DNA of 64,000 nucleotides. Source: an uncultured Atribacterota bacterium. Lineage in GTDB: Bacteria; Atribacterota; Phoenicimicrobiia; Phoenicimicrobiales; Stramentimicrobiaceae. The number at the start of each line of letters is the position of its first letter. Position 1 is the first letter of the stretch. A program made the translations under genes and the position numbers. Shown here piece by piece: positions 4,991 to 49,586 of the stretch. The notes below the pieces were generated by a model. That model had not been told where the DNA came from. It made no database searches and worked only from the letters and a program-made list of their open reading frames with translations. The stretch lies in contig CAYSSG010000005.1 of assembly GCA_964433635.1 (NCBI GenBank), forward strand, positions 11,295 to 75,294, in the 5' to 3' direction.

Positions 4991-5746
4991 ATGCGCAAAC
5001 CATTGATTGCCGGAAATTGGAAGATGAATAAGACAGTTACTGAAAGCATTTCCCTGATTAAGGAATTAATTGATTTTATGAAAGGCTATGAAGATACGGA
5101 AGTGGTGATATGCCCGCCTTTTACCTCATTATGGGTTGCCAGGGAATTAATTCAGGATACGAATATCCTGTTAGGTGCCCAGAACATTTACCATCAGGAT
5201 GAAGGCGCCTTTACCGGGGAAATATCAGCGAGTATGCTGCAGAATATTGGTTGTAGTTATGTCATTGCAGGTCATTCTGAACGAAGAGGTTTTTTTCATG
5301 AAAATTCTCAGGAGGTTGCCTGGAAAGTTCAAAAGGCACTATCCTTTGGTCTTAAGCCAATTATCTGTGTTGGAGAGAAATTAGCAGAAAGAGAATCAGG
5401 ATTAGCTGAAGATGTGGTTAAAGAAGAGGTGGAAGCAATTGTAGAGGTGGTAAAATCTCTGGAAGCCTCAAAAGTTGTTTTTGCCTATGAACCGATCTGG
5501 GCAATCGGCACCGGCAAATCTGCAACCTCCCGGGATGCCAATGATATGGTGAAGTATATTCGTGAACTGTTGAGGAAGAAATATGATGAAAAGGTCAGTG
5601 ATCAAATCAGGATTTTATATGGAGGAAGCGTGAATCCTGAAAATATTAAGGAATTGATGGCTGAAAGTGATATTGATGGTGCATTAGTTGGAGGAGCCAG
5701 CTTAAAAGCCCTTACTTTTTCACAAATAGTAAAATACAGGATATAG
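4991..5746 (+). CDS. tpiA: Triosephosphate isomerase
   Basis: MRKPLIAGNWKMN N-terminus, AYEPIWAIGTGK and GGASLK motifs. GGAGGA SD before the ATG at 4991. Confidence 0.95.
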   Translation: MRKPLIAGNWKMNKTVTESISLIKELIDFMKGYEDTEVVICPPFTSLWVARELIQDTNILLGAQNIYHQDEGAFTGEISASMLQNIGCSYVIAGHSERRGFFHENSQEVAWKVQKALSFGLKPIICVGEKLAERESGLAEDVVKEEVEAIVEVVKSLEASKVVFAYEPIWAIGTGKSATSRDANDMVKYIRELLRKKYDEKVSDQIRILYGGSVNPENIKELMAESDIDGALVGGASLKALTFSQIVKYRI

Positions 5747-6186: not shown

Positions 6187-7224
6187 TTGAATCAATTTAT
6201 TCGTTCTACTTCCGAAATAAAGCACTACCAGGTAGATACTGGGCGGAAACTTTTTTCTGCTAATCATGATGAGATAGAAAAAGGATTGACGACTGATGTT
6301 TATTTTATAAGAGCCCTGGAAATCCTGAAATATCTCCAACTGGATGGTACCAAGGTTACGGCAGAAATATTTGCCAGAAGAAAAGGAATTTTTGCCGGTG
6401 TTCAGGAAATATACAATCTGTTAAAGGATAAAAATATTAAGCTCTGGTCAATTCAAGAGGGAGATTCGTTTCAACCCAAAGAGACAGTCATGCGAATAGA
6501 GGGGCCTTATAACGAATTCGGAATTTTTGAGACAGTCATACTGGGAATACTGGCCAGCAGTTCTGCCTGGGCTACTGCAGCCAGAGCATGTCGTGATGTT
6601 GCTGGTGACAAAAAAATTATCTGTTTTGGATCCCGCCATATACACCCGGCAGTTGCCCCGGTCATGGAGAGATCCGCTATAATCGGTGGTATTGACGGAG
6701 CCAGTTGCATTCTGGGAGCGAAATTGATGGGCCAGGAGCCTCAGGGAACGATACCGCATACCGTGATCATTATTTCCGGAGACACGGTTAAGGCAGCAAA
6801 GGCATACCATCATTGCTGTCCCCCTGATGTTCCCAGGGTTATCCTGATTGATACATTTAAAGATGAGGCTGAGGAATCATTGAGGGTAGCTAATGCCTTA
6901 GGAAAAGATTTATTGGGAGTTCGGCTTGATACTCCCAGTGAAAGAGGAGGAGTATCCCCTGATCTGGTCAAAGAAGTGAGAATTCGGCTGGACCAGGCAG
7001 GATTTTCCCATGTTAAGATTTTCGTCTCCGGAGGTATAACGCCCGAACGGATTGAATTACTGAGTCAAGAAGCAGTAGATGCCTTTGGAGTGGGCAGTTT
7101 TATCAGCGATGCATCCCCCATTGATATGACCCTTGATATCAAGGAAATCGAAGGAAAACCGATTGCCAAAAGAGGGCGGATCCCCGGAAAGATTGAAAAT
7201 AAAAAGCTTGTGAAACTGATATAG
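6187..7224 (+). CDS. Nicotinate phosphoribosyltransferase family protein (COG1488-like)
   Basis: 345 aa. Weak but recognisable PRTase type II features (FGSRHIH, GGIDGAS, LIDTF, VRLDTPSERGG). TTG start with an AAAGGAAAC SD. Family-level call only. Confidence 0.55.
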   Translation: MNQFIRSTSEIKHYQVDTGRKLFSANHDEIEKGLTTDVYFIRALEILKYLQLDGTKVTAEIFARRKGIFAGVQEIYNLLKDKNIKLWSIQEGDSFQPKETVMRIEGPYNEFGIFETVILGILASSSAWATAARACRDVAGDKKIICFGSRHIHPAVAPVMERSAIIGGIDGASCILGAKLMGQEPQGTIPHTVIIISGDTVKAAKAYHHCCPPDVPRVILIDTFKDEAEESLRVANALGKDLLGVRLDTPSERGGVSPDLVKEVRIRLDQAGFSHVKIFVSGGITPERIELLSQEAVDAFGVGSFISDASPIDMTLDIKEIEGKPIAKRGRIPGKIENKKLVKLI

Positions 7225-7246
7225 CATTACGTATTATCTATATCAT
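7222..7246. repeat. Left inverted motif of intergenic cassette 1 (TAGCATTACGTATTAT...), overlapping the stop codon
   Basis: Member of a recurring motif family (see findings). Its partners are at 7811-7840, at 7616-7629 and at the other cassettes. Confidence 0.5.
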
Positions 7247-7498
7247 ATGCTGCATAATGTGAAATACTGGAAGTATAAATGTAAGATAATATAAAAAAAT
7301 CAATCTAAATTTTAAAAATTAAAATAAATCTGTTGAAAACAGAAAAATATCAGTAAACCAATCAGCTGGAAAATAAGTCATAGGAAAAGTGTAAATATAT
7401 TTAATCATTCATGTAGGGTAAATTTTTTTTATAGTGTCATTCGTTTTCGGTTTTTATATTTTGTTATTTTAGACCAGCATCTATACTTAAAAACGGTT

Positions 7499-7629
7499 TT
7501 GAAGTTTGGATTGGCAGATTCTTAATGATTTTTAACCAAAAACGAATAACTAAAAACTGAAAACAAATTTCAAGCTAACGACTGAATACCAACGACTAAC
7601 GACTTATTATTGGACTCAATACGTAATAC
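7499..7629. repeat. 131-bp perfect direct repeat, copy 1
   Basis: Identical to 7694-7824 as read by eye. Contains the AACGACT x3 sub-repeat and ends in the ATACGTAATAC motif. Confidence 0.85.
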
Positions 7630-7693
7630 ACACGACGCTATATCGTTTACCGTAAGGAGAGTTTGTGAATTGACTTTTGACACAGTATCTGAA

Positions 7694-7824
7694 TTGAAGT
7701 TTGGATTGGCAGATTCTTAATGATTTTTAACCAAAAACGAATAACTAAAAACTGAAAACAAATTTCAAGCTAACGACTGAATACCAACGACTAACGACTT
7801 ATTATTGGACTCAATACGTAATAC
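7694..7824. repeat. 131-bp perfect direct repeat, copy 2
   Basis: Identical to 7499-7629 at a 195-bp offset. Ends in the right inverted motif of the cassette, 26 nt before tRNA-Leu. Confidence 0.85.
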
Positions 7825-7850
7825 GGTATACGTTATACTGTCTTTAAATT

Positions 7851-7937
7851 GCCGGGATGGCGGAATAGGTAGACGCGCCAGCTTGAGGGGCTGGTGGGCT
7901 TATTGCTTGTGGGGGTTCAAATCCCCCTCCCGGCACC
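7851..7937 (+). tRNA. tRNA-Leu (anticodon GAG)
   Basis: Acceptor stem GCCGGGA/TCCCGGC. Anticodon stem-loop CCAGC-TTGAGGG-GCTGG, with GAG at positions 34-36. Long variable arm and T-arm GGGGG-TTCAAAT-CCCCC. Aligns with E. coli tRNA-Leu. Confidence 0.85.
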
Positions 7938-7981
7938 TCTATGCTGGTTGACGTGATATTCTAAAGGTTAATATTTTTTTA

Positions 7982-8012
7982 GAGGAAGTGCATACTTCCT
8001 TATTTTAATGTA
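7982..8012 (+). terminator. Hairpin plus T-rich tail downstream of tRNA-Leu
   Basis: AGGAAGT-gcat-ACTTCCT stem followed by TATTTTAAT. Confidence 0.4.
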
Positions 8013-8141
8013 AAAATACGGATTTTCAGTCACGAAATCCAGTCAACAGAAAATACGCTCTCCGGAGAACTTTCCAGGGAGATGAGAGGAAAGCGATTAA
8101 AAGGGTTTCAGGGATCATCTTTTCCTGATTCATTTATTGAG

Positions 8142-8492
8142 ATGCATGAAAGATCAATTGCCCGGAACTTATTGCATATCGTCTTAGATAAAGCAACTGT
8201 TAACGGTAGACAAAAAAAAGTAAAATTAATACGAATCATCATTGGCGAATTGACTATGATTCATGACGAGCTTCTGGTAGGTGCTTTTTATCAATTATCC
8301 CATTCTACAGTGGCAGGGGAAGCCAGAATTGAAATCCTGCATTCAACTTTACATGGAAAATGTCAAGACTGTCAAAAAAAATTCAAATTGAATAAAAGGG
8401 AATTTAAATGTCCTTTTTGTGGAGGTCAGTCTATTCAGATTATTAGTGGAGATGAATGTTTTATTCAGGATATTGAGCTGGTTGACCATTAA
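8142..8492 (+). CDS. hypA: Hydrogenase nickel-insertion zinc-finger protein HypA
   Basis: MHERSIARNLL N-terminus, plus CQDC...CPFCGG zinc-finger pair at the C-terminus. The ORF extends upstream to ATG 8082 (20 extra aa). Neither start has a good SD, so the start is uncertain. Confidence 0.75.
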   Translation: MHERSIARNLLHIVLDKATVNGRQKKVKLIRIIIGELTMIHDELLVGAFYQLSHSTVAGEARIEILHSTLHGKCQDCQKKFKLNKREFKCPFCGGQSIQIISGDECFIQDIELVDH

Positions 8493-8677
8493 ATTTTCTA
8501 AAATCAATTGCACACCTTATGAGGAATATGATATACTTTTGCCAGTGTTTTGAATTTCAGCAATTGAATCAACGCCAATACAGTTTCGACATAAAATTGA
8601 TTGTAATAAAGAAGAAGATTGGTCTAAGAGAATAGGTAAAAATTTTCTTAAATAAAGACTTAAAGTGAGGTGAAGGA

Positions 8678-9187
8678 ATGATTGGTTTTATTGTCAGTTT
8701 TATTTTGAGTTTTGTTGCCTATCTTTTTTTAACCGCCAATCAGGGAGAGATTCTTGGTCTATGGAGTCAATATGAAATCGTTGCTGCTGTGATTATTTCC
8801 TTAATTGTTGCGGCTATTTCAGCAAAGGTTTTGTTTCAGAAGAAGCATTATCGATTATTAAACCCATTGAGATGGGTTCTTTTTTTGTTCTATCTGATAG
8901 GACCTTTTTTTATTGCCATGGCAAAAGCAAATATTGATGTTGCCTATCGAGTGATTACCGGGAAAATCAATCCGGGAATTGTGAAGATATCCCCTCATTT
9001 AAAGACAGATACTGCTATCACGATGTTGGCAAATTCCATTACCTTGACACCCGGAACGCTCAGTGTAGATATCGATGAAAAGAACAATGATCTTTATATT
9101 CATTGGATTAATGTTACCAATCTCAAACCCACCATTGAAGATATTTGCGGCAGCTTCCCTGTATGGGCCAGGAGGATTGCAGAATGA
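8678..9187 (+). CDS. mbhA: Mbh subunit A (MrpE/MnhE-like antiporter subunit)
   Basis: 169 aa membrane protein. First gene of a 14-gene cluster whose sizes and order match Pyrococcus mbhA-N. GTGAGGTGAAGG SD. Confidence 0.65.
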   Translation: MIGFIVSFILSFVAYLFLTANQGEILGLWSQYEIVAAVIISLIVAAISAKVLFQKKHYRLLNPLRWVLFLFYLIGPFFIAMAKANIDVAYRVITGKINPGIVKISPHLKTDTAITMLANSITLTPGTLSVDIDEKNNDLYIHWINVTNLKPTIEDICGSFPVWARRIAE

Positions 9188-9459
9188 ATCAATTAAGTAA
9201 TATTTTTCTGATTCCAGCTATTTTGTTGATGTTTTTTATTTTTATCTCTTTATTGCGTCTTATCTTAGGGCCGACAGTGCCTGATCGTGTGGTCGCTATG
9301 GACACGATTAACACATTAGTCATTGCTGGAATGATTTTATTCGGTGCCGCTTTTAAAGAGATCATTTATATAGATGTGGCAATAGTATATGCCTTGTTAT
9401 CCTACATTGCGACCTTATTCATTGCAAACTATATGGAGAGGAGGGCGAAGGATAAGTGA
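9184..9459 (+). CDS. mbhB: Mbh subunit B (MrpF-like)
   Basis: About 91 aa membrane protein. AGGAGG SD before ATG 9184. Overlapping start/stop indicates translational coupling. Confidence 0.6.
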   Translation: MNQLSNIFLIPAILLMFFIFISLLRLILGPTVPDRVVAMDTINTLVIAGMILFGAAFKEIIYIDVAIVYALLSYIATLFIANYMERRAKDK

Positions 9460-9818
9460 CGATTTTATTAATTATTTTATACCTGTTCCTTTTGATTGGA
9501 ATATTTTTTAACGGATTGGGTTCATTCGGTTTAATGAGATTTCCTGATGTTTATACCCGATTACATGCTGCAACAAAATGTACTACTTTTGGATCTATCT
9601 TTTTTTCATTATCAGTAATTATTTTCGGATTCTATTCCTGGAATGCGAGTGGTGACTCTAAATATGGCGTGATGGCATTGCATACCATTGTAGCCCTGGT
9701 CTGTCTTGTTGCCACTAACCCTACAGGAGCCCATGCCATTGCCCGGGCGGCATACCGCAGTGGTGTGATGCCCAAGCAAGCGGTGGTTGATGATTTAAAG
9801 GAGGCAAACTTAAAATGA
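9456..9818 (+). CDS. mbhC: Mbh subunit C (MrpG/MnhG-like)
   Basis: 120 aa with 3 TM helices. Mrp subunit G-like (RFPDVYTRLHAATK). Confidence 0.65.
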   Translation: MTILLIILYLFLLIGIFFNGLGSFGLMRFPDVYTRLHAATKCTTFGSIFFSLSVIIFGFYSWNASGDSKYGVMALHTIVALVCLVATNPTGAHAIARAAYRSGVMPKQAVVDDLKEANLK

Positions 9819-10057
9819 GTTCATTGATAGGATTTGCCCATATTGCCATATTGCTGATGATGATTGTTGCTGCATTTATGGCTGTTAGTATGAAAAATCT
9901 TTTACCGTCAGTGATTGCTCTGGCTGTTGCCAGTCTATTGCTTTCACTGGAATTCTATCTATTGCATGCACCGGATGTAGCAATAGCAGAGGCTGGAATC
10001 GGAGCAGCATTAACGATGGCTATCTATATTTTTGCCATTCGGGCAACCAGGAAGTGA
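9815..10057 (+). CDS. mbhD: Mbh subunit D-like small membrane protein
   Basis: 80 aa, 3 TM helices. Position and size match MbhD. Confidence 0.55.
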   Translation: MSSLIGFAHIAILLMMIVAAFMAVSMKNLLPSVIALAVASLLLSLEFYLLHAPDVAIAEAGIGAALTMAIYIFAIRATRK

Positions 10058-10068
10058 GAGGTGAAGGA

Positions 10069-10335
10069 ATGAAAAAATCAATCTTTGGTTTAGCTTTGCT
10101 TTTTTTTGTAGCCTTTATGATTTTGGCTGCTTTCAGCATGCGGCTATTTGGAGAGCCAACCTTTAGTGAGGTGGATGATTATTACATTCAAAATGCCCAG
10201 GCTGAAACAGGAGCTAACAATGTAGTAACAACCATTGTTTTCGATTATCGAGGTTTTGATACATTGGGAGAAGGGACAGTTTTGTTTACAGCGGTCATGG
10301 GGATTACGGCATTGTTCAGGGAGGTGGTCAAATGA
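10069..10335 (+). CDS. mbhE: Mbh subunit E (MrpB-domain, DYRGFDTLGE motif)
   Basis: Conserved MnhB-type DYRGFDTLGE motif. GAGGTGAAGG SD before ATG 10069. Confidence 0.65.
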   Translation: MKKSIFGLALLFFVAFMILAAFSMRLFGEPTFSEVDDYYIQNAQAETGANNVVTTIVFDYRGFDTLGEGTVLFTAVMGITALFREVVK

Positions 10336-10808
10336 AAGAAATGTCTCGTATCGTTAGAACAATGACCACATTGATGTATGGTTTTATTCTTGTTTATGGT
10401 TTTTATATCATCGCGCATGGTCATTTAACCCCTGGTGGAGGTTTCCAGGGTGGTGCAATTGCTGCCTCAGCCTTTGCTCTACTGGTAGTTGCCTACGGAA
10501 ACAAGAGAGCCAAAGAATTTTTGCAGAAGGATTTTCTCGCCCTGGTTGAAAGTACCGGATTAGTTATCTTTATTACCTTAGCTTTTTTTGGTCTCGGATT
10601 TACCTTTTTTTATAATATTTTAGCAAACAGTGGCGGTTTATTCGGCAATGCGGCTGTCATTGGAATTAATCCCGGAGACCTGAATACCGGTGGGACCGTT
10701 ACTGCTATGAACATCGCAGTTGGTTTAGAGGTCATAGCAGCATTGGGGGTTGTCATTTTAGTGATGTCTGCTGCTTCAGAGATTATACAGAAGAAGGAGA
10801 ATTCATGA
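10332..10808 (+). CDS. mbhF: Mbh subunit F (MrpB-like membrane subunit)
   Basis: 158 aa polytopic membrane protein with a Gly-rich GGGFQGGAIAAS segment. Confidence 0.6.
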   Translation: MKEMSRIVRTMTTLMYGFILVYGFYIIAHGHLTPGGGFQGGAIAASAFALLVVAYGNKRAKEFLQKDFLALVESTGLVIFITLAFFGLGFTFFYNILANSGGLFGNAAVIGINPGDLNTGGTVTAMNIAVGLEVIAALGVVILVMSAASEIIQKKENS

Positions 10809-10809
10809 T

Positions 10810-11157
10810 ATGATTGGAAATTTTCCTTATATCGCTGTGGCAGTTTTAATCAGCTTAGGTATTTATACATTGATATTTAAAAAGAATCTGATTAAAATTG
10901 CCATCGGAATAACGATTATTGAGAGTGGTGTTAATTTATTTCTCATCACCCTGGGATACAGAAAGGGAGCCGTTGCGCCTATATACACACAGGCACCGGA
11001 GGGAATGAAAATGGTTTTACCAACTCCCCAGGCTTTAACCCTGACCAGTATTGTTATTGGTGTCGCAACCACTGCTCTGATACTTTCAATTGTGATGATG
11101 ATTTTCAAAAAATACGGAACACTGGATGCCGATGAAGTGAGGAGGTTAAAAGGATGA
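10810..11157 (+). CDS. mbhG: Mbh subunit G (MrpC/NuoK-like)
   Basis: 115 aa, 3 TM helices, NuoK/MrpC-like. Confidence 0.6.
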   Translation: MIGNFPYIAVAVLISLGIYTLIFKKNLIKIAIGITIIESGVNLFLITLGYRKGAVAPIYTQAPEGMKMVLPTPQALTLTSIVIGVATTALILSIVMMIFKKYGTLDADEVRRLKG

Positions 11158-12722
11158 GCAGCATTTTAGCCCATGCACCTGCCTTAGTCATAGCTTTTCC
11201 ACTATTGGCAGCATTTTTAACACCTGTTATAGGTCGCTTTAACCGTAAAGGATTGGGCTGGTTCGTATCAGTTGTACTGGGACTTACCCTGATTTTAACT
11301 TTACTCATGGCAACCCATATATTGACCGAGGGCCCGATGATTTATGTTTTTGGTGGGCGTGAAGCAGGGTTAACCCTGCCTTCCGGCTATACGGTACCAA
11401 TCCGGATTATTTTCCATATCGACGGGATGGGAATTTTTATGGGATTGATCACTGCGGTTGTCTCCTTTCTTGGCGCTATTTATTCTGTCTCTTATATGCA
11501 GGAGCATAGTGGTTTGGAAAAATATTATGCCCTTTTACTGTTGCTGGCGGCCGGGATGTTTGGCATGGAACTAACCGGAGATATTTTTAACTTTTTTGTT
11601 TTTCTGGAAATCGCCTCCGTTGCCTCCGTTGCCCTGATTGCTTTCCGGAGCCATATTTCCGGTGAACCTGCAGAAGCAGGTTTTAAATACATGGTGGTGA
11701 GCTCTATTGCTGCCTTAATGGTTTTATTTGCCGTAGGATTATTTTATGGACAGTATGATGTACTGAATATGGCTGCTATCGCCAGTGTAATGCAGTTTAC
11801 GCAACTGGATAAAATTGCCTTAATATTGCTGGTGACCGTTTTAGCAATGAAAGCCGGTTCGGTTCCCATGCATATGTGGACGCCTGATGCCTATTCGGAA
11901 GCTCCTGCGGCGATTACCATGATATTAGTTGCTGCCAGTCAAGCCAGCTTATATGCTCTTTTCAGAGTATCTTTTTCTCTGTACAATATCACCTTAAATA
12001 CTGTTGCTGTTGGCTGGATTATTATTATTCTGGGTGTTCTGTCCATGTTTATCGGCGTTACCATGGCTATTATTCAAAAAGATATAAAAAGGCTTATGGC
12101 TTATCATGCCATATCCCAGACCGGCTATATGCTGTTAGGTGTCGGGGTAGGGCTGGCTGTTCTCGGGAATCCTCAAGCATTGGAGACCTTTGGAATCAAG
12201 GCCATGGAAGGCGGTATATTTCATATTATGAACCATGCCATGTACAAGGGTTTACTGTTTTTAACTGCTGGTGCGTTATTTTATAGAACAGGCACCAGAG
12301 ACCTGAACAGGATGGGTGGATTGGCAAATAATATGTCTTACACCACGATATTCTTTATTATCGGTGCGGCAGCGATTGCAGGGATACCTCCCTTCAATGG
12401 TTTTGCCTCAAAGCTGATGATTTATGAGTCTGTCTATCGATTCAATCCACTCTTATCGATTATTGCCATGTTAGTCAGTATTTTAACGCTGGCTTCTTTT
12501 GTTAAAGTGTTTCATAGTGCTTTTTTAGGTCCTAAACTGGAGCAATATAAAGATGTGCAGGAAGTGCCAAAAACCATGGTATTTGCCATGGCAACCCTGG
12601 CCTGCATTATTGTTCTTTTCGGCTTATTCCCGGACATTATTGTGAAGAATTTAGTTCACCCTGCAGTCATGGCTTTAATCAACCAAACAAATTATACTGC
12701 AGCGATATTGGGAGGAATGTAA
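11154..12722 (+). CDS. mbhH: Mbh subunit H (MrpD/NuoL-like proton/sodium-translocating antiporter subunit)
   Basis: 522 aa polytopic protein. Resembles the complex-I NuoL/M/N antiporter family (HMWTPDAYSEAPA, LMAYHAISQTGYML). Confidence 0.8.
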   Translation: MSSILAHAPALVIAFPLLAAFLTPVIGRFNRKGLGWFVSVVLGLTLILTLLMATHILTEGPMIYVFGGREAGLTLPSGYTVPIRIIFHIDGMGIFMGLITAVVSFLGAIYSVSYMQEHSGLEKYYALLLLLAAGMFGMELTGDIFNFFVFLEIASVASVALIAFRSHISGEPAEAGFKYMVVSSIAALMVLFAVGLFYGQYDVLNMAAIASVMQFTQLDKIALILLVTVLAMKAGSVPMHMWTPDAYSEAPAAITMILVAASQASLYALFRVSFSLYNITLNTVAVGWIIIILGVLSMFIGVTMAIIQKDIKRLMAYHAISQTGYMLLGVGVGLAVLGNPQALETFGIKAMEGGIFHIMNHAMYKGLLFLTAGALFYRTGTRDLNRMGGLANNMSYTTIFFIIGAAAIAGIPPFNGFASKLMIYESVYRFNPLLSIIAMLVSILTLASFVKVFHSAFLGPKLEQYKDVQEVPKTMVFAMATLACIIVLFGLFPDIIVKNLVHPAVMALINQTNYTAAILGGM

Positions 12723-12723
12723 G

Positions 12724-13065
12724 ATGATAATTGGTTTATTGGAAACAGGCAGTGGTTATTGGAATGCGATTAGTTGGGTGATCATGGTCATTGTGGTTGG
12801 AATAGCAGTGATCTGGTTAAGAAATCACGGAGAAGACAAATATAAAAAAGATACGAACCAAACGAAACCATTTCTCTCGGGAAATCCTGAGGTTAGCAAA
12901 GAAGATTCGCATGTTGGTGCCAGTCATATCTATTGGGGGTTTACAGAGGCATTGAAACACTATTATCGGCCTTTGGTTCATCTGCACACGGGAAATATTA
13001 ATGATTACAGTGGATGGATTATACTGGTCATGGCACTTATTTTTATGATAGTAGGGGTGAGTTAA
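12724..13065 (+). CDS. mbhI: Mbh subunit I-like small membrane protein
   Basis: 113 aa with two TM helices. Position matches MbhI. Confidence 0.5.
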   Translation: MIIGLLETGSGYWNAISWVIMVIVVGIAVIWLRNHGEDKYKKDTNQTKPFLSGNPEVSKEDSHVGASHIYWGFTEALKHYYRPLVHLHTGNINDYSGWIILVMALIFMIVGVS

Positions 13066-13069
13066 ATTC

Positions 13070-13537
13070 ATGAAATTAGATAAATATTTAGATCGTTCTT
13101 TATGGGTATTCCATCTGAATACCGGTTCATGCAATGGTTGCGATATAGAAATTGTTGCCCTGTTAACACCCAGGTATGATGTAGAGAGATTTGGTATAAA
13201 ACTGGTGGGAAGTCCGAAGCATGCTGATGTATTGCTCATTACCGGTCCGGTTAACAGGAAGATGTTACCAAGGTTGAAATTGATCTATGAACAGACTCCT
13301 GACCCCAAGGCAGTTATTGTTGTGGGTACCTGTGGCACAAGTGGGGGTGTTTTTTATGATTCTTATAATATCGTAGGTCCTGCAGATCAGCATATTCCCG
13401 TTGATGTATATGTTCCCGGCTGCCCAATCAGACCTGAAGCAATTATTAACGGAGTCTTAAAGGCCTGGCTTAAACTGGAAAGATTAAGAGGTACATCCAG
13501 TGAAAAAGTAAAAGAGCCAGTTTCCACTAAAAAATGA
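13070..13537 (+). CDS. mbhJ: [NiFe] hydrogenase small subunit (NuoB-like, proximal 4Fe-4S)
   Basis: GSCNGCDIE...GTCGTSGG...PGCPIRPEAI cysteine pattern of the NuoB/group-4 small subunit. Confidence 0.9.
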   Translation: MKLDKYLDRSLWVFHLNTGSCNGCDIEIVALLTPRYDVERFGIKLVGSPKHADVLLITGPVNRKMLPRLKLIYEQTPDPKAVIVVGTCGTSGGVFYDSYNIVGPADQHIPVDVYVPGCPIRPEAIINGVLKAWLKLERLRGTSSEKVKEPVSTKK

Positions 13538-13545
13538 AGGTTTAG

Positions 13546-14070
13546 GTGAATACCATGGAATATAAGGAACCAAAAGAGTTACTATCTTTTCTGAAAGAGC
13601 ATCTGAAAGACGCTCTTTCAGATAGCCGTATCGAAACCAGAAAAGCAGGCACCAAACAGCAAGAATTCCATAATATATGGTTAGAAGTTACCAGAGAAAA
13701 GTTCAGGGATACGGTAAAATTATTAGCCAGCTTGCACTACCCGCATATTGCCATTATTTCCGGTAATGATACCGGTGAATCCATCGATTTGGTCTATTTA
13801 CTGTCTATATACTATGGAGAAAAATTTAAAGAGATTTCCGTTAATATAAAAGTCAGATTAGACAGGAAAAAACCCAGCATAGAAAGCATTACTGATATAA
13901 TTCCGGGAGCCCAGACGACGGAAAGGGAGATCAAGGAGATGTTAGGTGTGGAATTTATAGGACTTCCGGATATGCATCATATCTTTTTACCGGAAGATTT
14001 TCCAAAGAATGTTTTTCCTTTAAGGAAAAACGAAAAAGGATTGGACAAACTTGTTCAGAAGGAAAGTTGA
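13546..14070 (+). CDS. mbhK: NuoC-like subunit of group-4 hydrogenase
   Basis: 174 aa. Complex-I 30 kDa-like. GTG 13546 or ATG 13555 start. Confidence 0.7.
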   Translation: MNTMEYKEPKELLSFLKEHLKDALSDSRIETRKAGTKQQEFHNIWLEVTREKFRDTVKLLASLHYPHIAIISGNDTGESIDLVYLLSIYYGEKFKEISVNIKVRLDRKKPSIESITDIIPGAQTTEREIKEMLGVEFIGLPDMHHIFLPEDFPKNVFPLRKNEKGLDKLVQKES

Positions 14071-14081
14071 GGTGATTCAAG

Positions 14082-15305
14082 GTGAGTCAATCATCATATA
14101 AAGTACCTATCGGTCCCATTCATCCCTCGCTGGAAGAACCAATGACCTTTAATTTTGAGATAGCAGGGGAAAAGATAAAATCAATAGATTTAGCCCCGGG
14201 AGATAATCATCGCGGAATTGAATTTATGGGAAGAAATAGAAATATCATTCAGATTATCTATCTTGCAGAAAGAATTTGTGGCATCTGTTCTGCCTCTCAT
14301 CCCTATGCTTTTTGCCGGGCTGTGGAAAATGCCGCCGGTATCGAGGTACCACCCAGGGCTGAATATATCCGGGCGATTATTGCGGAACTGGAAAGAATTC
14401 ATTCTCATATCTTATGGGCTGGTGTTGCCGCCCACGAATTAGGTTTTGATTCGGTATTATTCCTCTCCTGGAAAGTACGGGAAGAAGTTCTGGATCTTCT
14501 GGAACTATTAACGGGAAATCGGATTAATTATGGAATGTATATGATTGGTGGCGTAAGGAGAGATATTTCAAATGAACAGATCCCCCGTATCAGACAGACC
14601 ATAGAATATTACAAAAATGTCTACCAGAAATTAGAAGATGTGTTTCTTGATGATCCCAGTATAGCCATCAGAACCAGAAATATTGGTGTTTTAACTTATG
14701 ATGAGGCGTTGAGTCTGTCGGGTGTGGGGCCGACCACAAGGGCATCTGGCGTAAAAAAAGACGTGAGACAGGACCAGCCTTATTCAGCTTATGCCGATAT
14801 GGATATCAAGGCCATTACGCCGGATATGTATTCGGGTAAAGTCGTTGGCGATGTATATGATCGAATTATTGTTCGCATCCTGGAAGTCAAACAGTCTGTG
14901 GAGATTCTTGAGTATTGCTTAAATCATCTACCTGAGGGAGAAATATTAACCGAAAAAAAACTTGCCAAACTTCTGGGAAGCCTGAAGAAGGCTAAAGGCG
15001 AAGGGGTCGGAAGACATGAAGCCCCCCGCGGTGAGGTTATACATTATATCAAATTAAACGAAGGAGAATATCCGGAAGTGTGGAAAGCGAGGGCGCCTAC
15101 GTATAACAATCTGATGCCCTGGATTCCTATGTTACGAAATCAGGAAGTGGCGGATATTCCCATTGTCATTGCCTCCATTGACCCCTGTATAGGCTGTATG
15201 GATCGGGTGACACTTGTTGATTCTGATTCTCATGAAAAAGAGATCTTAACCAGGGAAGAATTAAGAAAATTAAGTATTGAAAAGACCAGGAGGATGGTGC
15301 GATGA
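14082..15305 (+). CDS. mbhL: [NiFe] hydrogenase large (catalytic) subunit, NuoD-like, group 4
   Basis: N-terminal RICGICSASH and C-terminal DPCIGCMDR Ni-Fe ligand motifs. GTG start with GAGGTGA SD. Confidence 0.9.
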   Translation: MSQSSYKVPIGPIHPSLEEPMTFNFEIAGEKIKSIDLAPGDNHRGIEFMGRNRNIIQIIYLAERICGICSASHPYAFCRAVENAAGIEVPPRAEYIRAIIAELERIHSHILWAGVAAHELGFDSVLFLSWKVREEVLDLLELLTGNRINYGMYMIGGVRRDISNEQIPRIRQTIEYYKNVYQKLEDVFLDDPSIAIRTRNIGVLTYDEALSLSGVGPTTRASGVKKDVRQDQPYSAYADMDIKAITPDMYSGKVVGDVYDRIIVRILEVKQSVEILEYCLNHLPEGEILTEKKLAKLLGSLKKAKGEGVGRHEAPRGEVIHYIKLNEGEYPEVWKARAPTYNNLMPWIPMLRNQEVADIPIVIASIDPCIGCMDRVTLVDSDSHEKEILTREELRKLSIEKTRRMVR

Positions 15306-16309
15306 GTGGCGAAAGTATCTCGATTTTCATTCTAAAAATATTAATTGCATTGGTCATAGCTGCTCTGGGGATCGTCATTGGTTTATTTTATAAAGGTATT
15401 GACCGGAAACTGGCAGCGATGTTACAGTCCCGTGTAGGACCTCCCATCAGGCAACCTTTTCTGGATTTCTTTAAACTGATGGTAAAGGAAAATATCGTAC
15501 CTGAGAATGCGGTTCCCTGGATTTTTAACGGGGCACCTGTCTTAGCACTTGTTTCCACAATCACGATCTTGTTTTATATTCCCCTGGCCACTTTTCCCGC
15601 TTTGCTGGGAAACTCAGGTGATTTGATATTGATTGCTTATCTATTAGCCATACCGGCCATTGCATTAGTAGCGGGAGGTTTTTCATCCGGATCCACCTAT
15701 GCCAGCATCGGAGCCCAGAGAGAAATGGTCATGATGATGAGTTATGAGCTGCCATTGGTCACAACGATCATTGTTTTAGGGTGGCGTTTAAGCTTAGCCT
15801 ATCCCGGCTTGAATGTGTTCTCTCTGGAGGTCTTAAGTGCTAATCCGATTTGGGATTTAGTCGGTCCATTAGGTTTTATTGGTGCCTTATTTCTACTCTT
15901 TACACTGGCTATTGTGACACCGGCAGAGTTATCTATTGTACCTTTCGATATACCGGAGGCAGAGACCGAATTGGCAGGGGGTGTCTTAGTCGAGTATTCA
16001 GGTCGGAATTTAGCTCTTTTTGAATTAGCCAATGCCGTTAAGATGATTGTCATGGCTTCGCTGACTGTGGTACTCTTTTTCCCTTACAATATTTCACCCC
16101 TATTCTCTCTTGGGGGTGTTATTGCAGTTGGTTTGGATGTCCTGTTCTTTTTTGTAAAATTATTTGTCGTTATATTTTTTGAGGCAACATTGATTCGTGT
16201 TGCAGTCGCCCGTTTAAAGATAAACCAGGCTTCAGTAGCTTACTTGCTCTTTCTTTCTGCCATAGGTTTAATGGGTTTATTGTTTATAGCTATCGATTAT
16301 ATCTTATAA
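15302..16309 (+). CDS. mbhM: NuoH-like membrane subunit of hydrogenase
   Basis: 335 aa with about 8 TM helices. NuoH/HyfC/EchB-like. Confidence 0.8.
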   Translation: MSGESISIFILKILIALVIAALGIVIGLFYKGIDRKLAAMLQSRVGPPIRQPFLDFFKLMVKENIVPENAVPWIFNGAPVLALVSTITILFYIPLATFPALLGNSGDLILIAYLLAIPAIALVAGGFSSGSTYASIGAQREMVMMMSYELPLVTTIIVLGWRLSLAYPGLNVFSLEVLSANPIWDLVGPLGFIGALFLLFTLAIVTPAELSIVPFDIPEAETELAGGVLVEYSGRNLALFELANAVKMIVMASLTVVLFFPYNISPLFSLGGVIAVGLDVLFFFVKLFVVIFFEATLIRVAVARLKINQASVAYLLFLSAIGLMGLLFIAIDYIL

Positions 16310-16329
16310 ATAGAACGAGGTGATGAAAA

Positions 16330-16737
16330 ATGCCAACACCAATGGTATTTGAGTTAATCAGGCAGTTGTTTAATAAGCCGGCGACTAATTGTTTCCCGGT
16401 GAAATATTATCCCGGTAAGACTACTGTAACAGATCTTATGAAACAAGTACAGGATGGTGAAGTAAAAATTAATGCACCTGTGACAGTTCCGGAGAAATTC
16501 AGGGGTAAGATCACCTATGACCGGGATAAATGCATTGGATGTCAACTATGTATCAAGGTTTGCCCCTCTCGCGCAATTCAGTTTATTCCTGAAGAGAAGA
16601 AAATAAAGATTAGAATTGATCGGTGTATTTTTTGCTCGCAATGCAATGATATCTGTCCCGTAAGTTGCCTTCATATGTCTGAGGATTTTCTTCTGGCCAA
16701 TGAAGATCGTCTTGCTAAAGAGATGATTGTTGAATAG
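16330..16737 (+). CDS. mbhN: NuoI-like 2x[4Fe-4S] ferredoxin subunit
   Basis: Two CxxCxxCxxxCP motifs (CIGCQLCIKVCP, CIFCSQCNDICP). Confidence 0.85.
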   Translation: MPTPMVFELIRQLFNKPATNCFPVKYYPGKTTVTDLMKQVQDGEVKINAPVTVPEKFRGKITYDRDKCIGCQLCIKVCPSRAIQFIPEEKKIKIRIDRCIFCSQCNDICPVSCLHMSEDFLLANEDRLAKEMIVE

Positions 16738-17236: not shown

Positions 17237-17636
17237 GAAATATTTCCCTTCTACGATGCATGTGATTTGGTTATTTCCATAATATAAGAATATCATAACA
17301 TAATTTTTAAAGAATAACGCCGATATCAGGTAGCTGAATGGGATAAAAATTTGCAGGAAAGTATAAAGAATTGTAATATGTTATTATTGAAGAGAATTTG
17401 ATCATATTTTTATCCTGTTTAAAACAAGTGAATGGGTATTTATCTGTATTGTACCAATAGGGTTAGTACATAAAATGAAACACAAAGAAGTGTCTGTTTG
17501 CTGTATACAAAATGCAACAAATAGACCGGAATGATCATCCTATCAACAAAGCATATCATTGTTAAGAAAAGTGTAAATAGATTTCAGGGGAGATAACGCC
17601 CCTCACAATACTGTTTTTAGGGGGAGGTATAGATCT

Positions 17637-31435: not shown

Positions 31436-31655
31436 TATCATCTCCCGGGAATATATTTTAGAATCCCTGTTTCTTATTGAATAGATTTACTTGACTTTTT
31501 TCAATAGATGATGTTCAAAACGATCCGGTATTGAAGTAAAAGATGCAGCAAGAAAGAAAAATCCCTTTCAGAATTGATTCTTTTCATTTGAAGATCATGG
31601 GTTATTTTACATCAATGTTATAATGATGTAATAAATTGCTTTGATAGCAGGTTAT

Positions 31656-32123
31656 ATGACTGAGAGAATTGTATTATCTATAGATCCAGGAAGAAAAAAA
31701 TGTGGACTTGCAGTTGTTGATACCCGGTTACAGTTGATAGCCGGGGAAATTGTGGGCACTGAGCAATTGGTTAATCAGGTAAAGCGTTATTTAGAACGTT
31801 ATTCGATTGATTGTATATTAATTGGCAGTGGAACCAATTGCGGGGAAATCATGAATTCAATCAGACAGAGGTTCCCTGATTCTATGTTGATTGAGGTTAC
31901 TGAAAAGGACTCCACTATGCTGGCCAGAAAACGATATTTTGATTATTATCCCCCGACTGGGTTTCTGAAAATACTACCTGTAAGTCTGCGTGTTCCGCCT
32001 CGTCCCTATGATGATTTTGCTGCCTTAGTGATTGCTGAGCGGTATTTTCAGATTCATAAAAAGGGTGACTGTAAAAATGAACCATTTATGATTAATCATA
32101 ATCAAAGTCAAAGTAATGATTAG
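31656..32123 (+). CDS. Hypothetical RNase-H-fold (RuvC/YqgF-like) protein
   Basis: N-terminal IVLSIDPGRKKCGLAVVD resembles the RuvC/YqgF catalytic strand. ORF opens at TTG 31641; ATG 31656 is preferred. Low-confidence family call. Confidence 0.4.
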   Translation: MTERIVLSIDPGRKKCGLAVVDTRLQLIAGEIVGTEQLVNQVKRYLERYSIDCILIGSGTNCGEIMNSIRQRFPDSMLIEVTEKDSTMLARKRYFDYYPPTGFLKILPVSLRVPPRPYDDFAALVIAERYFQIHKKGDCKNEPFMINHNQSQSND

Positions 32124-32802
32124 TTCTCAGGAGGAGAGTCTATTGACGAAAGTTAGAGTATTTTCCAATATTATGAAGAGTAACGAAGATATGGCAGCAA
32201 AAAACAGGCAAATGTTCAGTCAATGCCGTATACCGGTCATCAATATCATGAGCTCGCCTGGGTCAGGCAAGACCAGTTTGCTGGAAAAGACCATCGAAAG
32301 ACTTGTTCAGAAAATCAGAATGGCTGTTTTAGAGGGGGATCTACAGACAGATCGTGATGCCCAACGTATAAGTCAATTTCCTGTTCAGGTAGCCCAGATC
32401 AATACAGATGGTGCCTGCCATTTAGATGCCAATATGGTAAATAAGGCATTATCAGCCTTTGATTTAAGTCAGGTGGATCTTTTTTTCATAGAAAATGTGG
32501 GCAATTTAGTATGTCCGGCTGGATTTGATCTGGGAGAAAATTTTCGGGTTAATCTGGTAAGTATTCCTGAGGGGGATGACAAGGTCATTAAATACCCAGT
32601 GATTTTTAGAAAATGTGATGTTTTATTAATTAATAAGATAGACTTACTGCCCTATGTGCAATTTGACATAACGCGCTTAAGAAAAGAAGCCCTGGACATC
32701 AAATCCGATATGAACATTTTTGAGATTTCCTGCCTGACCGGTAAAGGCCTGGAGGATTGGTTTGATTGGATTGCAGCAATAACAGGGGGGAAAAGTATAT
32801 AG
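32116..32802 (+). CDS. hypB: Hydrogenase nickel-incorporation GTPase HypB
   Basis: P-loop SSPGSGKTSLLE, ENVGNLVCP switch region. ATG overlaps the previous stop. Alternative TTG 32144 follows an AGGAGG. Confidence 0.85.
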   Translation: MISSQEESLLTKVRVFSNIMKSNEDMAAKNRQMFSQCRIPVINIMSSPGSGKTSLLEKTIERLVQKIRMAVLEGDLQTDRDAQRISQFPVQVAQINTDGACHLDANMVNKALSAFDLSQVDLFFIENVGNLVCPAGFDLGENFRVNLVSIPEGDDKVIKYPVIFRKCDVLLINKIDLLPYVQFDITRLRKEALDIKSDMNIFEISCLTGKGLEDWFDWIAAITGGKSI

Positions 32803-33087
32803 TATAACGTATACCGTATCACGAGAAAATACATTGAGAATAGTCGAGAGTCATATAAGATTTACGGGAAATATGAATCAAATTACATAACCTACTAAAT
32901 TAATTTTCAATGATGAAATGGTTGCATCAATAGTGTATTGATTCAAATATTGAAGTATCAATAAAACAAACAGATCAGAAATTTTTTTAATTTACATTGA
33001 AGTTTTTCTTATTAAAACGGTATACGATATACGTAATACGGTATACAAAAAGGAGTTTTCCTTAAATTTGCACTTGGTGGTTGAACA

Positions 33088-35427
33088 ATGAAAATAAGAC
33101 AAAAAATCACGATACATGGAATCGTACAGGGAGTCGGATTCAGGCCTTTTGTTCATAAATTGGTTCAAGAGAATCGTCTAACCGGTTGGATTTGTAATTC
33201 TAACCGAGGTGTTGAAATGGAAATTGAAGGGGAAGAAAGAGCTATGCAGCATATGATTGAGGAGATGAAGAACCATCTTCCACCGTTAGCTTTGATTGAA
33301 GATATGCAGGTAGAAAAATTACCTCTTTTGGGGTTTTCAGGATTCTCCATACAGGAAAGCAATTCGAATCACCGGCATCCTGTTATTCTTATCCCTCCTG
33401 ATATTTCAATTTGTGATGATTGTTTAAAAGAACTCACTAATTCCTCTGATCGTCGCTATCAATATCCATTTATCAATTGCACTAATTGTGGGCCCCGATT
33501 CAGTATTATTCAAGACATGCCTTATGACCGGGATAAAACAACCATGAAAAATTTCTCCATGTGTCCGGAATGTTATGCAGAATATACGAATATAGAGAAT
33601 CGGCGTTACCATGCTCAGCCTGATGCCTGTCCGGAATGTGGTCCAGAGATAACACTATTTCAAGGTAACCAGAGAGTAATAATCAGCCAGCCCATAAAAG
33701 ATGCACAAAGAAGATTGAAAGAAGGTCAGATAGGTGCCATCAAAGGATTGGGAGGTTTCCATTTAGCCTGTGACGCAGGTAATATACTGGCCGTATCAAG
33801 ATTACGGGATATGAAGCAGAGAGATGAAAAACCTTTTGCAGTGATGGCTGAGAATGTCGATATCATAAGAAAATTCTGTTATCTATCCTCCTATGCCAGA
33901 AGATACCTGGTAAGCAAGGAAAGGCCAATTGTACTCCTAAAAAAGAAAAAGAATCATCTTCTTTCACCGGATATTGCTCCCGGAAATGGTTATATTGGAG
34001 TGATGTTACCCTATACGCCGCTTCATTTTTTACTGTTGCAAAATAGTGATCTGGTTGTAGTGATGACCAGTGCCAATTTCAGTGATGAGCCGATTATTAT
34101 TCAAAATGAAGAAGCCAGGGAGAAATTAGCTCATCGGGTTGATTTTATGCTTATGCATAACCGGTCAATCTATAATCGCTGCGACGATTCTGTCATGAAA
34201 GTTCATTCCCGTCAGTCAATATTCATAAGAAGATCCAGAGGTTATGCACCTTTCCCCATTGTCCTGTCTGCAAAGAATTGTCAGATTATGGCTGCGGGAC
34301 CTGAAGAGAAAAATACGGTCTGTTTTACCCGTGATCGTTATGCTTTTCCCAGCCAGCATCTGGGTGATTTGAAAAATCCTGAAAGTTATAAAGCTTATCA
34401 GGAAGCAATAAAGCGATTCATCAGGATATTTCAATTTCAACCCGAAATCATAGCCTGCGATCTTCATCCTGATTACCTCTCTACTGTTTATGCCCGGGAG
34501 ATGTCCCTGGAGAAGAATTTACCTTTATTGGAGATACAGCATCATCATGCTCATATTGCCAGTTGTATGGCCGAGAATCAATTGTCAGAGAAGGTTATCG
34601 GTGTTGCCTTTGACGGAACAGGATTGGGTGATGATGGTAAGATATGGGGTGGTGAATTCCTGGTGGCTGATCTGAATCAGTATGTCAGAGCAGGTCATTT
34701 AAAGTACCAGGCGATGCCGGGAGGAGAACAGGTTATACATCAGCCCTGGAGAATGGCGTTCAGCTACCTTTACTCTATCTTTGGACAGAATATATTTGAT
34801 TCTGATATTCCCCTGATTAAGAGGAGAGATTCCCGGGAAATAAGAATCATTGTTCAGATGATGAATCAGAAGATCAATACACCTCATACTTCCAGTTGCG
34901 GGCGATTATTTGATGCCGTTTCTTCTCTTATCGGTCTCAGAGATGAGGTTCATTTTGAAGGACAGGCTGCGATGGAATTGGAATCGATGTGTCAACCGAA
35001 ATATACACAGCATTATCCCTACCAGATTGAAGAAACACCTGCTGGTTTAAATGTAAATTTAGAACAGATGTTTCACGGGTTGATCCATGATATGGCAGCA
35101 GGTGAACCTATCAATAAGATTGTTACCCAGTTTCATAATACCATTACAGAATTTACCCTTTCGATGTGTCTTAAAATAAGGAAGCACTTTCATCTGCATA
35201 CCGCCGTTCTAAGTGGTGGTGTATTTCAAAATGTTTTTTTATTGGAACGGACTATCAGGAAACTGAAAGAGAAGAATTTTGAAGTCTTTATCCATCAGAA
35301 AATGCCACCCAATGATGCCTGTATTTCTCTTGGTCAGGCAGTGATTGCCAATGCAAGGACTCAGTCCAGTCCTTCTGTGGGAAGACGAAAGAATCATATT
35401 GATTATGTCAGTTCAACAATAGGATGA
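33088..35427 (+). CDS. hypF: Carbamoyltransferase HypF
   Basis: Acylphosphatase domain (VQGVGFRPFV). Two CxxC-x18-CxxC zinc fingers. YrdC domain and Kae1-like domain. 779 aa. Confidence 0.9.
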   Translation: MKIRQKITIHGIVQGVGFRPFVHKLVQENRLTGWICNSNRGVEMEIEGEERAMQHMIEEMKNHLPPLALIEDMQVEKLPLLGFSGFSIQESNSNHRHPVILIPPDISICDDCLKELTNSSDRRYQYPFINCTNCGPRFSIIQDMPYDRDKTTMKNFSMCPECYAEYTNIENRRYHAQPDACPECGPEITLFQGNQRVIISQPIKDAQRRLKEGQIGAIKGLGGFHLACDAGNILAVSRLRDMKQRDEKPFAVMAENVDIIRKFCYLSSYARRYLVSKERPIVLLKKKKNHLLSPDIAPGNGYIGVMLPYTPLHFLLLQNSDLVVVMTSANFSDEPIIIQNEEAREKLAHRVDFMLMHNRSIYNRCDDSVMKVHSRQSIFIRRSRGYAPFPIVLSAKNCQIMAAGPEEKNTVCFTRDRYAFPSQHLGDLKNPESYKAYQEAIKRFIRIFQFQPEIIACDLHPDYLSTVYAREMSLEKNLPLLEIQHHHAHIASCMAENQLSEKVIGVAFDGTGLGDDGKIWGGEFLVADLNQYVRAGHLKYQAMPGGEQVIHQPWRMAFSYLYSIFGQNIFDSDIPLIKRRDSREIRIIVQMMNQKINTPHTSSCGRLFDAVSSLIGLRDEVHFEGQAAMELESMCQPKYTQHYPYQIEETPAGLNVNLEQMFHGLIHDMAAGEPINKIVTQFHNTITEFTLSMCLKIRKHFHLHTAVLSGGVFQNVFLLERTIRKLKEKNFEVFIHQKMPPNDACISLGQAVIANARTQSSPSVGRRKNHIDYVSSTIG

Positions 35428-35445
35428 AAGTAGAGGTATATTTCC

Positions 35446-35661
35446 ATGTGTCTGGCTATTCCCGGTAAAGTGATCAGAATCATTGATTCCGAACAAGGGG
35501 AAGTACTCCTGGGAGGAATTAAGAAGATAGTAAGATTAGAACTCTTGTCCGAAGTGAATGAGGGTGATTATGTCCTTATTCATGCCGGTTATGCCATTAC
35601 CAGAATCAATGCCCGGGAGGCGGATGAGATTAATCGCGCCTGGAAGGAGGTTCAGTCTTGA
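35446..35661 (+). CDS. hypC: Hydrogenase assembly chaperone HypC
   Basis: MCLAIPGKV N-terminus. 71 aa. Confidence 0.85.
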   Translation: MCLAIPGKVIRIIDSEQGEVLLGGIKKIVRLELLSEVNEGDYVLIHAGYAITRINAREADEINRAWKEVQS

Positions 35662-36740: not shown

Positions 36741-36905
36741 CGTATACTGTATAATGTATTATGTTCCAATACTTAGGGAGTATTGGGTGGGAAAAGTGTA
36801 TACACATGCATGTAGTTTTTATTCTGTAATATTTTTTATCAACTTCAGCTAGAGCTATATTTTCAAACGATATACGTAATACAGTATACAAAATGAGATA
36901 AACAT

Positions 36906-49299: not shown

Positions 49300-49586
49300 T
49301 AGTATTACGTATACCGTATAACGTAGAGACTGAAGAATAATTGAAAATAGTAGAACTTAAGCCTCGACTTACGATTATAGAGAAAATTAATATTCAATAT
49401 AACACTTAACACAGTGAATATAAAGTAAAGTCAATAATCCAGGATTCAATTAGACACTTAAGAAATTGTTTTATCGGATAAAACCAATTCCATGCGACAA
49501 TATAAAGTTTGATGGCTTATGATTATAAGATTTAGCTTTCAATAATACTTAGAAACGTTATACGCAATACAATACGGTATACTATT

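Follow-up and report, generated by a model that had tools for sequence, protein, structure and literature searches.

A 131-bp direct duplication in a heptamer-array spacer upstream of tRNA-Leu in an uncultured Atribacterota bacterium

What does a perfect 131-bp repeat represent when it lies in the spacer directly upstream of a tRNA gene? The question is raised by a 64,000-nucleotide stretch of DNA from an uncultured Atribacterota bacterium (contig CAYSSG010000005.1 of assembly GCA_964433635.1, positions 11,295 to 75,294; hereafter the window), in which the spacer between a QRPTase-family gene and tRNA-Leu(GAG) carries two identical copies of one sequence, here called unit A. The reading that we favour, with a probability of about 0.6, is that unit A is the compound right arm of a spacer built from inverted arrays of 7-nt units (heptamers), that this arm was recently duplicated in place, and that it is neither a gene nor an independent regulatory module. 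Related sequences used for comparison are cited by L numbers.

Anatomy of the repeat and its spacer

Window positions 7499–7629 and 7694–7824 are identical at 131 of 131 positions, in direct orientation and at a 195-bp offset, just as the initial annotation of this stretch had described, and chance is ruled out as the source of the identity. The match does not extend by a single base at either end (7498 differs from 7693, and 7630 from 7825). The arrangement is A (131 bp), B (64 bp, 7630–7693) and A′ (131 bp), with B unique. Two identical copies in the same orientation are what a simple tandem duplication would leave, but these copies are not head-to-tail: identity spans 131 bp of the 195-bp period, and the 64-bp B is single-copy. 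Both copies end in ...CAATACGTAATAC, after which copy 1 continues into ACACGACGC... and copy 2 into GGTATACGTTATAC... The right breakpoint thus falls inside the conserved right-hand motif, where the initial annotation had placed the divergence. An 11-mer, ATACGTAATAC, occurs 10 times in the window with at most one mismatch, against 0.43 expected, and is inverted around four intergenic spacers.

Period-7 arrays identified with Tandem Repeats Finder (TRF) build about 70% of unit A; the non-repeat head comprises its first ∼35 nt. In copy 1 (7499–7629, plus strand), the 35-nt head is followed by three right-type heptamer arrays: AAAACNN at 7534–7568 (TRF core 7539–7564, 3.7 units), CTAACGA at 7575–7604 (TRF, 4.3 units), and NNNATAC at 7612–7629. 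TRF finds the same arrays, with at least three tandem 7-nt units, in copy 2 (A′, 7694–7824, plus strand), which is identical to copy 1; there the NNNATAC array extends into GGTATAC GTTATAC (TRF 7813–7838, period 7, 3.7 units). The threefold AACGACT sub-repeat and the A-rich tract reported earlier are therefore both present, with three AACGACT per copy. What had been missed is that they are heptamer arrays, the former being part of the 4.3-unit CTAACGA array, and that B has a left-type arm of its own. Heptamer-array sequences of this system are ACGGTATACGATATACGTAATAC and CTAACGACTAACGACTAACGA.

Two left arrays precede copy 1. The outer one (7222–7250, TAGCATTACGTATTATCTATATCATATGC) is degenerate and aligns with the intact array TAGTATTACGTATAACGTATATCGTATATCGT of a relative, L005; its predicted duplexes with the right arrays are weak (−10.5 to −11.9 kcal/mol). 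The inner left array (7436–7470, GTCATTC GTTTTCG GTTTTTA ...) is complementary to the AAAAC-type array in unit A. Here the two form inverted repeats (I3 and I4) of 17 nt that are 88% complementary, with a duplex energy of −19.0 kcal/mol, and the pairing is present in the minimum-free-energy fold of the whole spacer.

Segment B (7630–7693, plus strand) is likewise composite: it holds a continuation of the right array, a left-type array, AAGGAGAG, a GTG, and the hexamers TTGACT and TTGACA. Positions 7630–7640 prolong the right array in phase (ACACGAC GCT), and 7634–7655 form the left-type array (GACGCTATATCGTTTACCGTAA; ATATCGT TTACCGT). Within the latter, 14 of the 16 positions of 7638–7653 agree with the reverse-complemented tRNA-proximal array, a score equalled by 12 of 300 shuffles. 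The left-type array of B and positions 7818–7843 can form a stem of ∼20 bp; the duplex of the array with 7813–7843 (−20.4 kcal/mol) ranks second among those with 20 right arrays, and this pairing is the closing stem in the fold of 7625–7850. Downstream of copy 2, segment R (7825–7843, plus strand; GGTATAC GTTATAC TGTC) is the remainder of the outer right array, ends 7 nt upstream of the tRNA, and is orthologous to GATATACTATATACT in L013. Because B carries its own left-type array, the locus resolves into two tandem hairpin cassettes with identical right parts. Cassette 1a runs from 7222 to ∼7633 and comprises the degenerate outer left arm, the inner left arm and A; cassette 1b (7634–7843) comprises the left arm in B, A′, and the tRNA-adjacent array.

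Heptamer arrays in Atribacterota and other bacteria

Arrays of this kind are common in the phylum. We counted arrays of at least three units in 272 kb of Atribacterota loci and in 499 kb of non-Atribacterota loci retrieved with the same gene query. The Atribacterota loci hold 65 period-7 arrays, compared with at most 19 for any other period, and the control loci hold 12 period-7 arrays, an enrichment of ∼10-fold. In the window and its relatives, 70 of 74 arrays lie outside open reading frames (ORFs) of at least 100 amino acids (aa), even though coding sequence makes up 79% of the DNA. Left-type arrays begin 0–25 nt past a stop codon and usually start with TAGTAT, whatever the heptamer family; the stop codon itself is TAG in eight of 15 array-followed genes versus 54 of 281 genes overall. 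Right-type arrays stop 8–50 nt upstream of a ribosome-binding site or tRNA, often with ATACTA. The unit family varies by species at the same locus (GTATAAC, GTATCGA, AGTTTTT, GTATCTC, CTAACGA, and others). Left and right arms of the same spacer are matched: cognate duplexes average −19.6 kcal/mol, versus −12.9 kcal/mol for non-cognate ones (permutation p < 1e-4).

The window contains four such cassettes, at 7225–7843, 32803–33047, 36735–36890, and 49300–49583 (cassettes 1–4). In these, a GTATNNN-type array at or near the stop codon is followed by a reverse-complementary NNNATAC-type array shortly before the next gene. The folds of cassettes 2–4 have z-scores of −2.5 to −3.4 and are closed by a stem of 20–30 bp that the arrays form, and BLAST within the window finds the interiors of all four cassettes to be unrelated. 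In the window and in loci L005–L034, complementary, lineage-specific heptamer arrays thus appear to enclose the Atribacterota spacers, with TAGTAT at the stop codon on one side and often ATACTA ahead of the next gene on the other, and such arrays would constitute an undescribed class of element. A literature search for heptamer or intergenic repeats in Atribacterota found nothing relevant. The arrays mark gene boundaries and possibly sites of operon processing.

Promoter-like sequences can follow the right arrays. Immediately past the right array of cassette 4, at 49593–49622, there is a sigma-70-type promoter close to the consensus (TTGACA, 17 nt, TAAAAT), and similar TTGAAC...TAGAAT promoters follow right arrays in L021, L022, L023, L025, L028, and L034, so array pairs can occupy the gap between a stop codon and the next promoter. 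One array family also extends further afield: perfect tandem arrays of ACGGTAT, ACGATAT, and ACGCTAT occur in 18 IMG/VR contigs (L087–L104) with GC contents of 31–61%, one of them 330 bp long (e.g., L096, 1333–1663). The ACGNTAT family is therefore not confined to Atribacterota.

Inverted arrays with recurrent ends raise the possibility that the spacers are mobile cassettes resembling miniature inverted-repeat transposable elements (MITEs), with TA/GTAT...ATAC/TA ends, and that the second copy of unit A arose by transposition or nested insertion. The TAGTAT left and ATACTA right termini do recur across heptamer families, the arrays come in inverted pairs, and TA is present on both flanks in window cassette 4, L006, L010, and L013. 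Moreover, L013 and L028 have cassettes in tandem or nested in one another, and L012 and L013 contain dispersed, related intergenic modules. However, the right-flank TA is missing from three of the four window cassettes (1–3), and what the four share is the arrays alone and not the interiors. No other A or B was found in the 64 kb, the related loci, or the metagenome and viral collections; neither possible 195-bp insert (A+B or B+A) is bounded on both sides by termini of the cassette type; and no transposase is linked. Compared with MITEs in general, the complementary spacer arrays do provide terminal inverted repeats, albeit with a degenerate outer left arm in cassette 1, but many copies with a conserved interior were not seen in the window, 84 related loci, or the metagenome and viral collections. 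We regard an origin by transposition as unlikely.

Known extragenic elements offer partial parallels. The Correia/NEMIS elements of Neisseria and the REP/BIME elements of enterobacteria are small, extragenic, have inverted ends, and lie beside stop and start codons. They are co-transcribed and fold into hairpins, which are RNase III substrates or confer stability on the upstream mRNA; the Correia ends begin with TATAG and duplicate TA. Yet these are conserved whole elements present in hundreds of copies, whereas here recurrence is confined to the heptamer arms, and the sequences between them are unrelated. The Atribacterota spacers also have no demonstrated link to a RAYT or other transposase.

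Heptamer repeats from three other lineages are also comparable. In marine Beggiatoaceae, some Cyanobacteria, and Bacteroidetes, direct repeats of the heptamer TAACTGA lie shortly before start codons; the Beggiatoaceae genome has 169 direct sets and one indirect set (MacGregor 2015, PMC4679880). Like the Atribacterota arrays, these are 7-nt tandem repeats that are almost exclusively intergenic, sit a few nucleotides before start codons, vary in abundance by lineage, and have no known function. Unit A itself carries the related TAACTAA AAACTGA AAAC (with one AAACTGA per copy), and relatives carry AACTGAA and ACTAAAA arrays. The Atribacterota system differs in its many coexisting heptamer families, its inverted pairs that bracket the spacer, and its left array at the stop codon. 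Similarly, heptameric simple sequence repeats (SSRs) have been described as GGGAATC in Xanthomonas, GGGGA(T/C)T in Nostoc, and three tandem heptanucleotides, the short tandemly repeated repetitive (STRR) sequences, in Calothrix PCC 7601 (Rehm et al. 2015, PMC4692102). That paper, citing Mrazek 2007, describes an excess of heptamers among long SSRs, with heptamer arrays as the commonest long simple repeats in bacteria. The intergenic arrays of Nostocales and Xanthomonas are abundant, sometimes form inverted pairs, and vary strongly among close relatives (PMC4692102). They share with the Atribacterota arrays an intergenic excess of period 7, some inverted pairs capable of forming stem-loops, wide variation in length and sequence among close relatives at one locus, and polymerase slippage as a proposed source, but they are G-rich (quadruplex-forming) or belong to other families, and stop-to-start brackets of the TAGTAT/ATACTA type have not been described for them. 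The heptamers of unit A (AAAACNN, CTAACGA, ACGNTAT) match no described family (TAACTGA, GGGAATC, CCCCAGT, or others). A further parallel is the P6b stem-loop of the Nostoc tRNA-Leu(UAA) intron, which is built from two complementary 7-nt motifs (PMC4476775). As in the Atribacterota spacers, its length varies with repeat number and insertions, and motif classes swap between lineages. P6b, however, lies in a group I intron within a tRNA gene and has no 131-bp duplication, whereas the present spacer lies upstream of an intron-less tRNA-Leu(GAG).

Atribacterota are thus the fourth lineage with a build-up of intergenic 7-nt repeats, after Cyanobacteria, Xanthomonas, and Beggiatoaceae. It is conceivable, if unlikely, that a dedicated mechanism maintains or propagates the arrays, such as a nucleic-acid-binding protein that reads heptamers or copying templated by the opposite arm, in which case the 131-bp duplication would be a snapshot of the birth of a cassette.

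Tests for function in the duplicated unit

As for function, the initial annotation had proposed that the repeated sequence might be a small structured RNA or a regulatory module, present twice in front of the tRNA. Our searches do not bear this out. Rfam 15, run on the window at the gathering threshold and on 7150–8100 at a permissive one, returned the tRNA only; the best non-tRNA matches had E ≥ 0.07 and fell far under the gathering scores, so the covariance-model check proposed earlier assigns unit A to no family. ARAGORN found no tRNA or tmRNA except tRNA-Leu. On the plus strand, unit A folds much as its shuffled versions do (z = −0.23), as does the whole spacer (636 nt, z = −0.64), and no sigma-70-like promoter or terminator was called in A or B on that strand. 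The TTGACT and TTGACA boxes noticed earlier do lie between the copies, at 7670–7675 and 7677–7682. As promoter elements they were rejected, having no −10 partner at 16–18 nt; similarly, the TTGGCAG in unit A was rejected as a sigma-54 −24 box because the −12 GC is absent.

Coding potential is equally sparse, although two figures need correction. The spacer (7225–7850) is 626 nt long rather than 625, and the earlier limit of 11 codons for any frame is too low, as stop-free stretches reach 25 codons within unit A. ORFs with start codons that leave unit A run from 7610 to 7720 on the plus strand (36 aa) and from 7570 to 7683 on the minus strand (37 aa). The ORFs found are only 36–48 aa long, and none is recorded as a called gene product in the gene-position index.

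A search for additional copies of unit A, another check proposed at the outset, found none by BLAST in the window or in the 84 related loci, JGI metagenome contigs, and IMG/VR. Two JGI metagenome matches were judged to be chance, lying inside a DNA methyltransferase gene. We also rejected other repeat-generating systems. A CRISPR-like repeat-spacer-repeat is excluded by the 131-bp repeat length and the copy number, and an att duplication left by a tRNA-targeting integrative element is contradicted by a repeat that stops 26 nt 5′ of the tRNA and by the neighbours, QRPTase and hypA. Two apparent recurrences of a perfect duplication in relatives were likewise set aside: that in L012 belongs to another kind of hairpin element, of which an 83-nt unit is repeated in tandem, and that in L029 is a scaffold-gap artefact, in which an apparent 55-bp perfect duplication (803–902) flanks a run of Ns within an ABC-transporter gene. 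Taken together, there is no support for a small RNA gene or a self-contained regulatory module.

Function could still reside in the number of arrays, if these were multivalent sites for an RNA- or DNA-binding protein, or if the unit were a cis-regulatory leader of tRNA-Leu, and the duplication had been selected. In most relatives right-type arrays do immediately precede tRNA-Leu or start codons, unit A contains TAACTAAAAACTGAAAAC, and the perfect identity of the copies would fit selection as well as recent origin. Against selection for dosage, 220 nt separate the distal copy from the tRNA, what comes after that copy is B and not a gene, and a doubled right arm is seen at this locus in none of the relatives. 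Array sequences also differ between species at the same locus, such that no specific sequence is conserved, and no partner protein was identified. We therefore consider selected dosage quite improbable.

Origin, assembly and setting of the duplication

How old is the duplication, and which of its junctions are new? The initial annotation inferred a very recent duplication or gene conversion. The 0/131 differences between the copies agree with this, but the evidence for "recent" is weak: a contig from another sample differs from the window at one position in 400 within the spacer, and the perfect identity therefore excludes only events older than ∼2% divergence. The junctions are more informative. 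The 3′ ∼60 nt of copy 2, together with R and the tRNA, align with the tRNA-proximal spacer end of L012 and L013 (...CCAACGACTAA.TACTAACGA.TTATTA...ATACGTAATACGATATACTATATACT...). Because the sequence that follows ATACGTAATAC in these relatives resembles R and not B, the A′–R junction is ancestral, and A–B and B–A′ are lineage-specific. The right breakpoint coincides with a heptamer boundary in the NNNATAC array, and the 7-nt phase is preserved on either continuation. We rejected a derivation of B by divergence from the left part of the spacer, because 328 of 500 shuffles score as well.

We propose that a recent, local DNA event copied 131 bp from the right part of one cassette into the other. 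Candidate events would include illegitimate or unequal recombination, template switching, and gene conversion, ending in register in the NNNATAC array, where slippage-prone and mutually similar arrays could supply the homology for the right breakpoint. The whole spacer is probably co-transcribed with the upstream gene and the tRNA, as judged from relatives whose spacers are only 30–57 nt. In such a precursor RNA the arm pairs may form long stems that, by analogy with Correia/NEMIS and REP elements, would act as processing or stabilising hairpins. The duplicated unit would then have no function beyond providing an arm. The complementary arms make the hairpin/RNase III hypothesis directly testable.

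An ordinary recent segmental duplication between short homologies shares with this locus its close, identical direct copies and a breakpoint in repetitive sequence; the 64-bp unique segment between the copies, and the fact that the duplicated piece is a repeat-array arm, set the locus apart. Perfect 131-bp direct repeats are expected to recombine away readily, and the A–B–A state is therefore probably transient and polymorphic.

The duplication might alternatively be an assembly artefact, that is, a mis-resolved repeat loop in which the path through the left flank, A, B, A, and R is simply the shortest walk through the graph. Variants of this view place a single copy here and A–B–A elsewhere, or invoke a copy number above two or mixed strains. 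The A–B–A structure is indeed seen in one assembly only, and no independent contig runs through the repeat: each of the four Logan contigs either ends at or before it or begins in the tRNA (L001 starts at window 7908). The k = 31 contig of SRR8925737 reaches window 7528 and so includes exactly 30 nt of copy 1; a contig from a second sample ends at 7533, and a third contig at 7463. Many Atribacterota contigs from metagenome-assembled genomes (MAGs) also break in or near the spacer, and the scaffold-gap artefact in L029 counsels caution about assemblies. On the other hand, an assembler writes the A–B and B–A junctions only from reads, so these must be present in the data; A then has B on either side of it somewhere, and A–B–A exists in the sample. 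The locus has no Ns or gap marks, the A′–R junction has an orthologous counterpart in relatives, and the left flank and A are contiguous in three independent contigs. The contig end k−1 bases into A is what a second left context predicts and fits a real repeat, because the first 31-mer of A then has two left neighbours. The copy number may nevertheless exceed two, because A is longer than usual k-mers. Overall, we judge an artefact to be decidedly improbable.

Several points weigh against a recent local duplication of a spacer arm. No source for B was found in the 84 loci or in IMG/VR. The left breakpoint has no homology save the 8-nt TGAATTGA, which is repeated 24 nt upstream in B. The duplication must therefore have taken two steps or have arisen by conversion between tandem cassettes that already existed. 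In the same vein, identity over part of the period does not fit a simple tandem event and calls for at least one extra step or for cassette conversion. Unit A is mildly more stable than shuffles on the minus strand (z = −2.48). Transcription of the spacer and formation of the stems in vivo are presumed. Finally, the copy number and placement of the duplication are provisional, and the Logan contig ends could instead come from a co-occurring strain in which the left junction differs.

The 131-bp duplication is, then, probably an ordinary and unstable rearrangement in non-coding DNA. By itself it matters little, as a young rearrangement and an assembly warning for this locus, and the array system around it is the more interesting result. 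Atribacterota are a widespread phylum of the subsurface and of digesters that is known mainly from MAGs, and the arrays help to explain why MAG contigs break at gene ends. Contigs of Atribacterota MAGs often end in or beside this spacer or in tRNA-Leu (L005, L012, L009, L021, L023, L026, and L029), as do the Logan contigs. Arrays combined with near-identical tRNAs from co-occurring species appear to break short-read assemblies here.

The genes on either side of the spacer are conserved. The upstream gene (6187–7224, plus strand) encodes a nicotinate/quinolinate phosphoribosyltransferase-like protein with the Pfam domains QRPTase_N and QRPTase_C, and its stop codon TAG (7222–7224) supplies the first three bases of the left terminal motif. 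An identical protein is encoded on three Logan contigs, and its closest relatives, at 75–88% identity, all come from Atribacterota MAGs. The tRNA-Leu(GAG) gene (7851–7937, plus strand; ARAGORN; Rfam tRNA, 57.2 bits) has counterparts of 93–99% identity in 24 Atribacterota loci, and in each of them it follows the QRPTase gene, so this gene order, retained in about 25 relatives, is old. The spacer between them is hypervariable, ranging from 30 to 385 nt in relatives and to ∼2.2 kb where extra genes intervene. Its interior can be aligned within subclades only, and the window has the longest simple spacer at this locus. On the 3′ side of tRNA-Leu lies hypA, followed by an Mrp/Mbh-type membrane hydrogenase operon; hypA and this 14-gene Mrp/Mbh-like membrane-bound [NiFe] hydrogenase cluster occupy 8082–16737. 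A separate hyp maturation cluster, apparently one operon, lies at 31641–37916, and its hypB-like/hypF and hypD/hypE junctions are split by array cassettes of 245 bp and 156 bp.

Repeats of a second type accompany the heptamer arrays. In the window, the GC hairpin CAGGGGA-N5-TCCCCT(GAA) has three matches versus 0.1 expected, including those at 17585–17603 and 50409–50427. In L012 and L013, a dispersed module of ∼85 nt (AGGGGTTCTCAAGGGGAAGGATTCCCCTTGAATATCTTGTTGC.AAAACAAGATAG) lies upstream of genes. Its sites are 5361–5562 and 1133–1262 in L012, and 1511–1737, 5505–5632, 7650–7696, and 8609–8658 in L013; in L012 the module is also found as a tandem of 2.4 units with 100% identity.

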